This document shows, piece after piece, positions 12,001 through 18,000 of a stretch of DNA of 42,830 nt. The number at the start of each line of letters is the position of its first letter. The stretch's first letter is position 1. The DNA comes from a virus (taxonomy: Duplodnaviria > Heunggongvirae > Uroviricota > Caudoviricetes): IMG/VR virus record IMGVR_UViG_2913152634_000003. One strand, 5' to 3'. The position numbers are program-made.

Positions 12001-15000
12001 GCCTCGATTATCGTCACTGGATAATCTCCGTCAGGCTTCCTTACTCTGAACGCCCACCGCGTCCGTCCCGCACATTCCAGCAACGGATCTGGAGGTAACG
12101 TGCGGGTATTACTTCGACCTGTTCTGGTACCGGAACTCGGGCTGGTGGTCCTTAAGCCAGGTCGTGAATCCATGCAGGTATTTCACAATACCCGGGTGCT
12201 GGTGGAGCCGGAACCGAAAAGCATGCGTAATCTGCCGTCTGGGGTCGTTCCTGCCGTTCGCCAGCCGCTGGTGGAAGACAAAACATTGCTGCCATTTTTC
12301 AGCGACGAACGAGTGATTCGTGCTGCTGGTGGTGCTGGTGCATTGTCTGACTGGCTGTTGCGCCATATTAAATCCTGCCAGTGGCCACACGGCGATTATC
12401 ATCACAGCGAAACCGTCATTCACCGTTATGGTACCGGCGCAATGGTGTTGTGCTGGCACTGCGACAACCAGCTGCGTGACCAGACATCCGAATCACTCGA
12501 GCAACTTGCTCATCAAAACCTGTCAGCATGGATGATTGACGTCATCGGTCACGCAATAAGCGGTACGCAGGAGCGTGAATTATCTCTGGCTGAATTATCC
12601 TGGTGGGCGGTCCGCAATCAGGTGGCGGACGCGCTACCGGAAGCGGTATTACGTCGTTCGCTGGGGTTGCGTGCGGAAAAAATCCGCTCAATGTACCGTG
12701 AAAGCGACATCGTACCGGGAGAGCAGACCGCCACCAGCATACTGAAGCAGCGCACAAAAAATCTTGCGCCGCTGCCTCACGCCCACCAGCAACAAATCCC
12801 GCCACAGGAAAAGACTGTGGTCAGCATTGCCGTTGATCCGGAGTCACCGGCTCAGTATCTCCAGCGCCAGAAACCACAACGGGAAGAGATGCCTGTATAC
12901 ACGCGCTGGGTAAAAACGCAGAAATGCATGACGTGCGGTAATCAGGCAGATGATCCGCATCACATCATTGGTCATGGACTGGGAGGGATGGGAACAAAGG
13001 CTGATGATTTGTTTGTTATTCCGCTGTGCCGTAAATGTCATAACGAACTGCACGCCGGGGTAAAAGATTTTGAAGAAAAACACGGCAGCCAGCTGTTGTT
13101 GCTGATTCGTTTTTTAATGCACGCGAGAAATTCGGGTGTTCTGAAGTGGAAAGCATGAATGACTGAACGCATAGAATTTGTTTTGCCTTACCCGCCGACG
13201 GTGAATACCTACTGGCGACGTCATGGCAATACGTATTTCATCTCGGAAGCCGGAAAGCGTTATCGCCGTGATGTGGCGCTAATTGTTCGCCAGCAGCGGC
13301 TGAAATTAAACCTGTCCGGAAGGCTGGCGATAAAGATTATTGCAGAGCCACCGGATAAGCGCCGCCGCGACCTGGACAATATCCTGAAGGCACCACTGGA
13401 TGCGCTGACGCATGCCGGACTACTTATAGACGACGAGCAGTTTGATGAAATCAATATTGTGCGCGGTCAGCTCGTTCCTGGTGGGCGACTGGGCGTGAAG
13501 ATTTACGAAATAATGCATGACGGGCAGGTCAATAAATGAAGCTGGAAGATTTACCGAAATACTACTCCCCAAAATCGCCAGGTCTGACTGATGCATCCGT
13601 CTCGACGTCAAAAGATACGCTGAGTATCACTGATGTGATGGCTGCGCAGGGTATGACACAAGACCGTGCTGAGATGGGATTTTCTGCGTTCCTGGGGAAA
13701 ATGGGCATCAGTATGAATGACCGGGAGCGGGCAACAGAACTACTGACAGAATATGCTCTCAGTCGGTGTGATGGCGTGGCGGCGTTAAGAAAACTTCCGG
13801 CAGAAATAAAACCGGCAGTGATGCGCATTATGGCTTCGTACGCTTTTGAGGATTATGCCCGCAGCGCAGCGAGTAAAAAGCAATGCCCTTGTTGCCGAGG
13901 GGAAAAATTTATTGAAAGCGAGGTTTTTACAAACAAGGTTCAGTATCCGGATGGTAAGCCGCCAGTATGGGCAAAGTGTACAAAAGGCGTGTATCCGTCT
14001 TACTGGGAAGAATGGAAAAAAATCCGGGAGGTGGTGAAGGTTTCCTGTCCCGAATGTAAAGGGAAGGGAGAGATTTCGACCGCCTGTAAAGACTGTCGTG
14101 GGCGTGGTGTAGCCATTCATCGTGAAGAGTCAGAGAAACGGGGTATGCCTGTTATCAGGGACTGCCAGCGTTGTGGTGGTCGTGGCTATGAAAGACAGCC
14201 GTCGACGGAGGCATTTAATGCCATATGTGAGGTGACAAATCAGATAACACGCGCGTCATGGGAAAAAACGGTTAAGCAATTCTATGACACTCTGGTGGTT
14301 CGGTTTGACATTGAAGAGGCATGGGCGGAGCGGCAGTTAAAAAAGGTAACCAGATAACAAGGTTGATTTTTCCGGAATCTGTGGTAAATTTATCCTAATG
14401 ATGGGCGCTTTATGCCTGACGTTAAAAGATTTTTTACAACCCGCCGCCGTGCGGGTTTTTTTTGTGCCACTTATCTCGGATAGACATGGTGAATGCGCTG
14501 GTGAAGGAGGTAAGTGTGATTTTTAACCAGGTGATTTTTGAATGCTTGCAACATTGATTTCGTAACGTTATTATCCTGCGCCCGGCCCTTTAGCTCAGTG
14601 GTGAGAGCGAGCGACTCATAATCGCCAGGTCGCTGGTTCAAATCCAGCAAGGGCCACCAACCGCCACTAGCTCATCAGGAAAGAGCGTCAACCCTTTAAG
14701 TTGAGTGTACGAGGTTCGAGTCCCCGATGGTGGTCCATTATCGGTATTCTGCGTTGTTAGCTCAGCAGGACAGAGCAATTGCCTTCTAAGCAATCGGTCA
14801 CTGGTTCGACTCCAGTACAACGCGCCACACTTATTTTCCCGGCTCGCTTTTGCGGGCCTTTTTTGTATCTGCGCCACGCCCGGCGCATATCAACCACAGA
14901 GCCTTTCAGGGGGAGCCATAGGGAACGGTCGGTGTGACTGTCTCTGTGGGCTGATCATTCCTGAGTGCTGGCTCACCCACCCAAAGGAACGTCACGATGT

Positions 15001-18000
15001 TTGGAATCTTCAAAAAGAAAACCCGCAGAGCGGCAGCGGAAATTAAAAAGTTTGAGAAACGCGATCTGGCACAGGCGGTGATTAACGCTGCATACCTGGT
15101 GGCCTATGCAGATGGTGAATGCGAGGCATCTGAGAAAGCGAAGATCGAACAGGTCTTACGTAATCAGCCTGCGTTGTCTGCGTTTACCTCGGAAATTAAT
15201 GCGATTAGCGCAACTATTATCGGTCAGCTGGATACCAATTTTAAAATTGGTCGTCGTGCCGCGTTACGCGAGATTGAGGATGTGAAACACGATGCGCGTG
15301 AAGCGGAAGATGTGCTGGATGTGGCGGTGGCCATTGCGGAGGCAGACGGCGAAATTGAGCCGGAAGAGCGCAAGGTGCTGGAAGAGATTGCCGGTGTTCT
15401 GGGTCTTCGTCTGGAGAATCACCTGTGACGGTAAAACTGCGCCTGGCTGTGGCTGCACTCCTGCTGTTTCTGGTGGTGATGGTGGATTTCACCAGCAGAA
15501 TCATGTCGGTGCTGGCGGATGGGGTGCTGGTCTGCGGCATTGTGGTATTGCTGTGGCCGGTGATAAAAAGAAACAGCCTGTATAATGCTTGATTTTTTTG
15601 TTTGCTGTTTATTAAAAACACTTCTGCATGGTGAATCCCCCTGTGCGGAGGGGCGACTGGTGTAGGTAGCATTTATTATGTTGTAGGCAAGCCGACGCGG
15701 GTTCAGTGACACCGGCTGAATTCACCGGGAGGCACCCGGCACCATGCTTTGCCACAAAAGTGTTATTTCTGTTTTTCTCAAACTATCATCGTTATTCCTT
15801 TATTTCCGGCTGCGCATGGCGCGGCCTTTTTTTTACGACCAGCCACTGGCAGATGGTCATCCTGTGATTTGATTCCGGTTCCGGCTTTTTAACTCTGTTC
15901 CTGTACACGGGAGAAATTCGATGTCGATTAAACATTACGATGTTGTCAGGGCGGCGTCGCCGTCAGACCTTGCGGAAAAGCTGACACACAAACTGAAAGA
16001 GGCCTGGCAGCCGTTTGGTAGTCCGGTGGACATAACTCCTTATACCCTGATGCAGGCGATTGCAGCAGAAGGTGATGTGGTGGTCAAGTAATACTGGCCA
16101 CAGTTACCCAGAAACTGAATGGAGTTGCAGGTTCGGCACTCCAGGTCATAAAAGACAGTCTGACACTGAGGCTGAATGCGCTGACGCTGACGGATGTTAC
16201 AAAAAATGCAGCGTATGGCGTTGAGATAGAAAGTCTGGTGCTGGAGATAAATGCACCGGCAGCATAATAAAAAAAGCCAGCGCCCACTCTGAAGGACGCT
16301 GGCTAAAACGGGTAGATGAACTTCACATGTTGCTTCTATATGGCGGTACATTTTCTGACAGACAGTGACGGATGTTGTCAAGATATTGTGTCATTTATAA
16401 CCTGAATCAGGGGGGCGGAATGTTATCTGGCATTTTTAGCAGAGCCTGAATGCCATAATCACGGCTCCCGGCGTTGGCCGTCAGTGGGTGACACTGGCGG
16501 CTTTTTTGTTTTTCTTTACTTTCATTTTCTGTCGGCGGTGACGGAGGCATACATCAGATGGAAAAAATCACAACAGGTGTGTCATACACCACGTCAGCGG
16601 TGGGGACGGGATACTGGTTACTGCAGCTGCTGGACAAAGTCTCTCCATCCCAGTGGGTGGCAATAGGTGTATTGGGTAGCCTGCTGTTTGGCCTGCTGAC
16701 GTATCTGACAAACCTTTATTTCAAGATTAAAGAAGATAAGCGTAAGGCTGCGAGAGGTGAATAATGTCGCCATCATTACGCAAGGCTGTTGCTGCTGCTA
16801 TTGGTGGTGGGGCTGTTGCCATAGCGTCTGTGCTCATCACTGGTCCGAGTGGTGACGATGGCCTGGAAGGTGTCAGCTACATACCATACAAAGATATCGT
16901 TGGCGTATGGACTGTATGTCACGGACACACCGGAAAAGACATCATGCTAGGTAAAACGTATACCGAAGCAGAATGCAAAGCCCTCCTGAATAAAGACCTT
17001 GCCACGGTCGCCAGACAAATTAACCCGTACATCAAAGTCGATATACCGGAAACAACGCGCGGCGCTCTTTACTCGTTCGTCTACAACGTGGGTGCTGGCA
17101 ATTTCAGAACATCGACGCTTCTTCGCAAAATAAACCAGGGCGATATCAAAGGCGCATGTGACCAGCTACGTCGCTGGACATACGCTGGCGGTAAGCAATG
17201 GAAAGGCCTGATGACTCGTCGTGAGATTGAGCGTGAAGTCTGTTTGTGGGGGCAACAATGAGCAGAGTAACCGCGATTATCTCCGCTCTGGTTATCTGCA
17301 TCATCGTCTGCCTGTCGTGGGCGGTCAATCATTACCGTGATAACGCCATCGCCTACAAAGAACAGCGTGATAAAAAAGTCAGTGAGCTGAAGCAGGCGAC
17401 CGCCACCATCGCTGACATGCAGCAGCGTCAGCGTGATGTTGCTGCGATCGATGCAAAATACACGAAGGAGTTAGCCGATGCGAAAACTGAAAATGAAACT
17501 CTGCGCGCTGATGTTGCCGCTGGTCGTAAGCGCCTGCGGGTCAATGCCAGTTGCTCCGCAGCCGTGCGTGAAGCCACCGGACCCACCAGAATGGATAATG
17601 CAACCAGCCCCCGACTGGCAGACACCGCTGAACGGGATTATTTCACCCTCAGAGAACGGTTGATGACGATGCAGAAGCAACTGGAAGGGGCGCAGGAATA
17701 TATCCGCACCCAGCGCATTAAGTAGCTGGAGAAAAAACACGAATCTGTGGTTTTTACTGAGCGCGGTGTACACGGTGGAACATATGGCGGGAAGTTTGTT
17801 GCTTATGATTATGCAGCATGGCTAAACCCCGGATTTAAATATGCAGCCTATAAAGTCCTGGATGACTACTTCACCGGAGAACTTCAGCATCGCAACAGCT
17901 TAAGTGCGCAGCTCAATATGAAGTGTCATGAGTTTGATCAGAAAAAAGATATGGCGAGCTTCTGTGGACAAGGGCTGGCGGCATGGCGCTATACGAAGCC

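Follow-up and report, generated by a model that had tools for sequence, protein, structure and literature searches.

The prophage analysed here, IMG/VR virus record IMGVR_UViG_2913152634_000003 (Caudoviricetes; 42,830 nucleotides, the whole stretch being referred to as the window), carries an overlapping gene pair, tciA-tciB, in the late-operon slot that is occupied by the Shiga toxin genes in Stx2 phages. The tciA gene encodes a soluble, cytoplasmic, non-enzymatic protein of the TerB fold, and tciB encodes a small hydrophobic protein of the DUF3927 family. The pair is almost certainly one that has already been named and annotated, and so is not new; the evidence added here is the recurrence of a TerB gene together with a small membrane gene across phage types. 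The explanation that best accounts for the data, and which is favoured tentatively, is that the two proteins would constitute a co-translated inner-membrane module that guards or monitors the membrane during lytic growth.

The names tciA and tciB derive from the bacteriophage P1 genes tciA-tciB-tciC, and full-length profile matches, a common strand and an overlapping or abutting gene order all place the window pair among the P1-type tciA/tciB modules. TciA matches PHROG 632 from end to end (positions 1-143 of 143, E 5.1e-69), and TciB matches PHROG 1470, 'TciB-like', over positions 1-51 of 54 (E 2e-29). RefSeq labels the identical genes 'tellurite resistance TerB family protein' and 'DUF3927 family protein', and a 99.9% identical copy of the prophage is found between potC and potB in NZ_CP104509. 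At least 785 of 5,426 complete Escherichia coli genomes (∼14%, about one in seven) hold the pair, as counted by copies covering at least 80% of the 861-bp query. The initial annotation of the locus, which was read from the DNA sequence alone, had missed these names and families, together with the STnc100 small RNA (sRNA) gene, the Rfam match of which begins 5 nt past the tciB stop codon.

Both genes are present in the list of open reading frames (ORFs) where they had first been placed, on the plus strand and with the GTGA overlap described for them (Table 1). The proposal that the upstream gene encodes a TerB-like protein is upheld by profile and structure searches: TciA scores 59.8 bits against Pfam TerB PF05099 (cut-off 24.4) over residues 26-138, matches Klebsiella TerB (Protein Data Bank (PDB) entry 2jxu) with an E-value of 4.5e-8, and has a predicted all-helical structure for which the best matches are two TerB-like crystal structures. 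Together, these matches identify a TerB-like fold. The acidic motif of the protein is indeed duplicated, as had been noted, but as ADGE-x-E rather than as an exact EADGE repeat; copy 1 reads YADGECE (residues 37-43, within YADGECEASEK, residues 37-47) and only copy 2 reads EADGEIE (residues 115-121, within EADGEIEPEER, residues 115-125). Among 26 TciA homologues D39, G40 and D117 are kept in at least 90%, and E46, G118 and E124 in all. TciA thus has the two acidic D-G...E motifs of the TerB family, motifs that have been proposed as a divalent-cation binding feature. The N-terminus is polybasic (MFGIFKKKTRR), with a net charge of +6 over the first 18 residues, and begins with a conserved hydrophobic motif, M-F/L-G-x-F/L-K-K-K.

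Searches of Pfam and NCBIfam returned no catalytic family match for either TciA or TciB, which agrees with the lack of a recognisable catalytic motif reported initially. The NCBIfam matches for the pair were all far below threshold (DjlA, YmfL and anti-sigma-E) and no function could be gained from them; for TciA the weak matches lying far below family cut-offs were to DjlA NF006948 (E 1.4e-6) and DUF533 (23.5 bits). When compared with the gene of phage JLK-2012, which is about 88% identical at the DNA level, tciA shows a ratio of non-synonymous to synonymous substitution (dN/dS) of 0.05. The corresponding value for tciB is 0.26, and two alternative frames of the tciB region give 1.4 and 3.0. 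Since these ratios are low and the Pfam matches of both proteins lie above cut-off, tciA and tciB are under purifying selection and are not chance ORFs. Minus-strand and other-frame ORFs (for example 15241-15672) were considered and rejected, because the substitution pattern fits the tciA and tciB frames only.

TciB scores 61.4 bits against Pfam DUF3927 (PF13064; cut-off 25) and, as a hydrophobic protein of ∼55 residues, carries the signature of that family, D21-F-x-S-[RK]-x-x-S28-x-x-x-D32-G ... W-P. Across 74 cluster representatives the conserved TciB positions are R6, D21 (68/74), F22, S24, R/K25, S28 (70/74), D32 (68/74), G33, W44 and P45. On a helical wheel, positions 21, 25, 28 and 32 are confined to an arc of 60 degrees, and the spacing of these polar residues therefore puts them on one face of the helix. 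The family is a small one, only 120 clusters being recovered when 1.84 billion representative proteins were searched with its profile, and its genuine members are all stand-alone proteins of about 50-60 residues. The hydropathy profile of TciB has two maxima, at about residues 5-20 and 26-47, that are split by a DFTSR motif, and this profile, taken with the basic residues at both ends, would fit a hairpin with both termini inside (N-in/C-in). AlphaFold2 modelling of TciB alone gives one continuous 52-residue helix (residues 3-54; predicted local distance difference test score, pLDDT, 89). The membrane location of TciB is secure, and its topology may be either that of a hairpin or that of a single long helix. 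Of the 'two-helix membrane protein' first described, it is consequently the membrane part that stands.

The coupling of the two genes is strongly conserved. The four bases shared by tciA and tciB are GTGA, such that the GTG start codon of tciB lies inside the last codons of tciA, and a Shine-Dalgarno sequence (GGAGA) is located 9 nt 5' of this GTG. In a sample of 80 IMG/VR prophage fragments, all of them near-identical E. coli prophages (97-100%) and so a count of junctions and not of diversity, tciB is found 3' of tciA in 74, and CTGTGA at the junction, where the start codon of tciB (GTG) and the stop codon of tciA (TGA) overlap, is kept in all 74. This bears out both the translational coupling and the conservation of the small ORF across prophages. 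Moreover, in nine of ten diverse phages a membrane ORF of 51-73 residues begins between -8 and +4 nt from the tciA stop codon. This partner belongs to DUF3927, above threshold, in P1, the N4-like phage Pollock, Klebsiella phage 5 LV-2017 and Pantoea phage LIET2; it is a sub-threshold DUF3927 match in the Erwinia jumbo phage ChrisDB, and it comes from an unrelated family with a single transmembrane (TM) helix in the Pseudomonas phages AF and Zuri. The converse search, which started from distant DUF3927 genes on eight encoding contigs, gave a TerB-domain gene directly 5' in all seven that could be assessed, at spacings of -8 to +6 nt, the eighth having its upstream gene cut by the contig end. 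Spacings of -8 to +6 nt thus cover the pairs of P1, Pollock, LIET2, ChrisDB, Klebsiella 5 LV-2017 and the metagenomic relatives.

A number of variant arrangements were also met. The small partner in AF and Zuri has 67-73 residues, one N-terminal TM helix and no Pfam family, is spaced -4 and +4 nt from tciA, and has a conserved C-terminal motif, WYGYQTERET-x-YA-x-FVGCMV (AF, L008 1932-2153; Zuri, L011 1943-2146). The TciB proteins of phages 434 (L003 2612-3844) and 2B8 have a different N-terminus (MFYKLCLL...) and are encoded 3' of a 247-residue multi-TM protein that has no Pfam match, with another small membrane ORF 3' of TciB; these cases show that TciB can be joined with other partners. Apparent TerB-DUF3927 'Rosetta stone' fusions (P0124, P0186, P0254, P0288, P0289 and P0340) were all rejected as products of frameshift, deletion or assembly chimerism. 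In P0124 (197 residues), P0186 (170 residues) and P0288 the two proteins are fused by a frameshift located at the GTGA junction or close to it, and look like the outcome of mutation or sequencing error. Finally, a 1.99-Mb metagenomic contig (L096 2058-2662) has a TerB-DUF3927 pair in a chromosomal variable island, flanked on one side by an SbcCD-like ATPase/phosphoesterase pair and on the other by an AIPR (abortive-infection) gene, which is a possible defence-island context. On the related contigs L097 and L098 an H-NS gene replaces the genes on that flank, followed in L097 by a sensor-kinase gene.

The genomic position of the pair was initially given as the stx slot between the tRNA cluster and the holin gene. 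Both landmarks are found (Table 1), and comparison with Stx2a phage 1447 confirms that tciA-tciB take the place of stx2AB, the terminator on the tRNA side and the sRNA being the same in both. The gene order in phage 1447 is ileZ-argN-argO, stx2A, stx2B, STnc100 (75 nt later), nanS-p, holin; that of the window is Q, tRNAs, tciA, tciB, STnc100, nanS-p remnant, holin; and that of JLK-2012 is Q, tRNAs, tciAB, STnc100, full-length nanS-p, S-R-Rz. The terminator past the last tRNA and ∼20 nt beyond it are common to the window and phage 1447, and homology resumes at the sRNA. Indeed, a member of the STnc100 family is located 3' of stx2B in Stx2a_1447 and 3' of tciB in JLK-2012. Judged from these gene orders, the borders of the slot are the tRNAs to the left and STnc100 to the right.

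Transcription of stx2 in this slot needs Q-modified polymerase. A pattern scan placed plus-strand terminators at 14438-14457, 14841-14858, 15808-15826 and, directly 5' of the holin gene, 16476-16502; three are counted between Q and the holin, and the window pair lies behind two of these, the tR'-like and the post-tRNA terminators. A consensus scan gave no promoter-like site in 14859-14996, within the limit that weak or non-sigma-70 promoters could escape it, and the next plus-strand terminator, at 15808, is already past the sRNA gene. Because the pair is downstream of Q, behind terminators and without a promoter-like site, its transcription in the window prophage would be late and Q-dependent, with the proteins made only after induction. 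Other phages provide different settings. In P1 the pair is part of the C1-repressed early ban operon, and in virulent Pollock it lies between an RNA polymerase (RNAP)-II-like gene and N4 gp24/25-like genes. Two metagenomic temperate phages have it directly 3' of cro, another metagenomic contig has it 3' of a phage-type RNA polymerase gene, and in Pseudomonas phage AF it diverges from a repressor-like gene. The phage contexts examined would appear to be lytic-cycle operons in every case, and several of the carriers are strictly virulent.

TerB proteins have been described as membrane-associated and amphitropic, with a role in 'membrane surveillance' proposed for the Bunzi, Shango and Dionysus defence systems, and the TerB-like domain of E. 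coli DjlA adjoins the membrane helix of that protein. TciA and TciB, translated as a coupled unit, would work jointly at the cytoplasmic membrane, and a TciA-TciB membrane complex is somewhat more likely than not. TciB would provide the membrane partner or anchor, with TciA as the cytoplasmic subunit for sensing or regulation. The outcome would be a minimal Ter-like module in which TciB stands in the place of TerC and provides, in trans, a membrane element for which other TerB proteins rely on a segment in cis or on TerC. Made during lytic growth, and in the window prophage after induction, such a module would serve to monitor the energised inner membrane, or to protect it, once the cell is committed to the lytic cycle. 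The insults guarded against could be depolarising pore-forming abortive-infection effectors, colicins and superinfecting phage, akin to the phenotypes of the ter operon, which include phage inhibition and colicin resistance; the module would not be a tellurite detoxifier. A membrane-protection or exclusion role of this kind is favoured over its rivals, but is less likely than not.

Several points weigh against the membrane-module explanation. Literature searches gave annotation-level mentions only and turned up no experimental study of a phage TciA or TciB. The P1 genes tciA, tciB and tciC were found to be non-essential in a CRISPR interference (CRISPRi) screen (PMC10695390). The TciA-TciB partnership is not obligatory, since phages 434 and 2B8 carry TciB without TciA and Vibrio phage K479 has TciA without an adjacent small membrane gene. 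In addition, the sole TerB-DUF3927 fusions met are frameshift products, hydropathy and AlphaFold2 disagree on the topology of TciB, and neither protein matches a known defence-system model.

The alternative that survives best, and which is itself quite unlikely, is that the pair acts as an anti-defence decoy, with a membrane-held phage TerB mimicking the host TerB sensors (those of the ter operon, Shango, Bunzi and Dionysus) and blocking or titrating them. TerB domains are parts of several validated defence systems, and the occurrence of the pair in virulent N4-like and jumbo phages, in early and middle operons typical of counter-defence genes, would suit a decoy, as would its being non-essential in a laboratory host; moreover, Dionysus specifically targets jumbo phages. 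However, TciA has no match to the PADLOC models of those systems, and none of those systems is known from most of the E. coli strains that harbour these prophages. The late expression predicted in the window prophage would also come too late to block infection sensing.

A contribution to host takeover, by inhibition of division or remodelling of the envelope in lytic growth in the manner of Kil or DicB, would correspond to the third meaning of the P1 name 'tci'. The ter region was first linked to filamentation (P1 annotation note; PHROG name), the early-operon positions adjoining cro would be suitable ones, and small membrane proteins are often division inhibitors. This argument rests on annotation by homology alone, however, and Pfam and NCBIfam gave no homology to known division inhibitors. 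Given also that the early-left operon of the window prophage already has genes for DicB and DicF, such a role is regarded as improbable.

The initial annotation had itself suggested three roles: stress protection, abortive infection and lysis timing. Lysis timing would have the pair modulate the triggering of the adjacent pinholin/signal-anchor-release (SAR) endolysin cassette, and it draws on the location of the pair in the same late transcription unit, ∼1 kb 5' of the holin gene, and on the likeness of TciB, as a small membrane protein, to holins and antiholins. Yet TciB matches no holin family in Pfam, the true holin being the separate gene listed in Table 1, and Stx phages with the same lysis cassette, of which Stx2a phage 1447 was examined, do not have the tciAB pair. 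P1, N4-like, jumbo and cro-proximal temperate phages carry the pair in early or middle regions far from their lysis genes, and this variable timing and distance argue against any general lysis-timing role, which is accordingly disfavoured as very improbable. Least probable of all is lysogenic conversion, in which the pair would be a moron giving the host of the dormant prophage resistance to tellurite, oxidative stress or colicins: the tellurite-resistance annotation, the use of the slot for stx virulence cargo and the occurrence of the pair in roughly 14% of the complete E. coli genomes speak for it, and against it stand the lytic-cycle contexts and strictly virulent carriers (which argue against a benefit to a dormant lysogen), the repressor-controlled early operons of other temperate phages, the failure of the scan to find a sigma-70-like promoter between the tRNA terminator and tciA, the absence of terC, terD and terE from the prophage annotation, and the judgement of the PMBT3 authors that a lone phage terB is unlikely to confer tellurite resistance (PMC8421299).

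The membrane-module explanation can be widened into that of a self-contained phage 'mini-Ter' device, widespread in temperate phages (lambdoid and P1-like) as well as in virulent ones (N4-like and jumbo), which would be expressed in the lytic cycle and would sense or stabilise the condition of the inner membrane. This wider proposal is on the unlikely side. If true, the device would exclude competitors or defeat membrane-triggered immunity, and would be a viral counterpart of the TerB 'membrane surveillance' defence modules. As a sequence feature the pair is ordinary: its genes are named, belong to Pfam and PHROG families and carry annotations in hundreds of E. coli genomes. It retains value as a subject for experiments, being a conserved coupled unit that is found in the Shiga-toxin slot and over unrelated phage types, and a module of two genes may give a first handle on the function of the TerB domain, which is an unexplained part of anti-phage systems.

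The features of the locus and of its surroundings are collected in Table 1.

Table 1. Positions in the window of the tci genes, of the features that adjoin them and of other prophage cargo.
Feature	Position	Strand	Evidence or description
DicF sRNA, with dicB	4534-4585	-	
Adhesin gene paa	about 10019-10777		
hok/sok toxin-antitoxin locus	about 10970-11119		Rfam sok, 104 bits
Late antiterminator Q, 273 residues	13536-14357	+	Pfam Antiterm PF03589, E 6.5e-51; RefSeq 'antitermination protein'
Candidate PR', TTGATT-N16-TAAATT, TG before -10	14363-14390	+	Read by eye; not flagged by promoter scan
tR'-like intrinsic terminator, 80 nt past Q stop codon	14438-14457	+	Terminator scan
Promoter-like site just 5' of tRNA cluster	14546-14574	+	Promoter scan
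Three tRNA genes: CAT (Ile2/Met), Lys-TTT, Arg-TCT	14584-14827	+	ARAGORN, Rfam, RefSeq
Intrinsic terminator 3' of tRNA cluster, left border of cargo slot	14841-14858	+	Terminator scan, alignment
tciA	14997-15428	+	ATG start, 143 residues; ORF list
tciB	15425-15592	+	GTG start, 55 residues; ORF list
STnc100-family sRNA gene, right border of cargo slot	15597-15783	+	Rfam RF02076, 116 bits (gathering score 47)
Intrinsic terminator 3' of STnc100	15808-15826	+	Terminator scan
nanS-p N-terminal remnant (DUF1737, 56 residues)	15921-16091	+	Pfam DUF1737, 52.6 bits; PHROG 143, positions 1-56 of 634
Terminator 5' of holin gene, minus strand	16304-16275	-	
Terminator directly 5' of holin gene	16476-16502	+	Pattern scan
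Class II (P21-type) holin, first lysis-cassette gene	16558-16764	+	Pfam Phage_holin_2_1, E 1.2e-32; RefSeq
Type III secretion system (T3SS) effector cluster, right end	39512-42830		Two DUF1076/NleG-like genes, frameshifted espW, espM2

On the tRNA side of the slot, the tRNA with the CAT anticodon is a tRNA-Ile (ileZ-like) according to RefSeq. tRNA genes are found within ∼1.5 kb or less of tciAB in five of ten phage types, including P1, JLK-2012, Erwinia ChrisDB and Klebsiella 5 LV-2017; they comprise all three tRNAs of P1 and six in the jumbo phage, their identities vary by phage, and the proximity is absent in the N4-like, Pseudomonas, Vibrio and Pantoea phages. It could be due either to a shared cargo region or to a functional link. 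The ∼130-nt leader 5' of tciA (14866-14996) is ∼90% identical in Klebsiella phage 5 LV-2017 (L012 2370-2500) and in several E. coli phages, the TciA proteins of which are only 42% identical (P1-type allele). This disparity points to a mosaic junction within the first ∼25 nt of tciA. A structured-RNA explanation for the leader was rejected, as the folding z-score is -1.0 and the conservation reflects the mosaic junction.

On the other side of the slot, a perfect TATAAT hexamer (15581-15586) lies within the final tciB codons ahead of the STnc100 gene, and in JLK-2012 the STnc100 gene has a TTGACA element upstream in place of this hexamer. The nanS-p remnant is annotated by RefSeq as a partial pseudogene; intact relatives encode the sialate O-acetylesterase NanS-p, and a full-length gene (about 620-645 residues) is present at the same position in JLK-2012, 434 and Stx2 phages, including Stx2a_1447. 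The ∼470 nt between the remnant and the holin gene (16092-16557) are non-coding, and RefSeq places endolysin and spanin genes 3' of the holin gene. In a recent preprint TerB (PF05099) is listed as one of the typical neighbours of the prophage sRNAs PasA and PasC, PasD is described as related to STnc100, and pasA, pasC and pasD1 directly adjoin the holin/lysozyme operon (10.64898/2026.05.13.724894). Going by these positions, a PasA/PasC-type sRNA may lie in the 16092-16557 stretch.

Elsewhere in the window (19109-38969) the terminase gene is uninterrupted and is accompanied by a full lambda-like set of head and tail genes. In the strain E2 copy (NZ_CP104509) the terminase gene is interrupted by an IS21 element, and ∼16.5 kb of morphogenesis genes are missing. 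From its gene content, the window prophage may still be inducible. The remaining cargo, comprising paa, hok/sok, DicF/dicB and the T3SS effectors, is typical of strains of the enteropathogenic/enterohaemorrhagic E. coli (EPEC/EHEC) type.

The closest known relative of the window pair is that of P1. The same two families occur there in the same order, abutting or overlapping, with 41% identity between the TciA proteins from end to end and 58% in the core of TciB; in both genomes tRNA genes adjoin the pair, and in both the proteins are non-catalytic. The two loci differ in that the P1 operon continues with tciC, a third small membrane gene that not every member of the tciA/tciB family has, whereas in the window tciB is followed by no such gene but, after 5 nt, by an sRNA gene. 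They also differ in control, the P1 pair being in the C1-controlled early ban operon and the window pair in what is probably a Q-dependent late operon. Within one P1 subgroup, about half of the members have lost the tci operon (PMC9603915).

Klebsiella TerB (PDB 2jxu), from the terZABCDE operon, shares with TciA its Pfam family, its fold and the acidic DG motifs and is of similar size (153 versus 143 residues), but the sequence similarity between the two is low. Furthermore, the TerC, TerD, TerE, TerZ and TerA partners are missing from the window, where the partner is instead a 55-residue DUF3927 protein; terC and TerD-family genes are absent both from the annotation of the 99.9% identical prophage and from beside the pair in the phages examined. 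The defence systems Shango (SngA), Bunzi (BnzA) and Dionysus (DinB) likewise combine a TerB domain with membrane components, for which membrane surveillance has been proposed. In contrast to these systems, the window pair has no helicase, ATPase, pore-forming-toxin or MAEBL partner. PADLOC gave only a marginal match of TciA to the candidate family PDC-S48 (E 0.004) and none for TciB, with no adjacent helicase, ATPase or toxin genes. Shango, Bunzi and Dionysus are located in host defence islands, whereas the tci pair is phage-encoded and found in what appear to be lytic-cycle operons, the exception being the chromosomal copy beside the AIPR gene. Lastly, the E. coli proteins DjlA and YebE (DUF533) also have a TerB-like domain that is held at the inner membrane. 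In these proteins the tether is a fused TM helix, with a J domain in addition in DjlA, whereas in the tci pair the membrane element is encoded by a separate gene.

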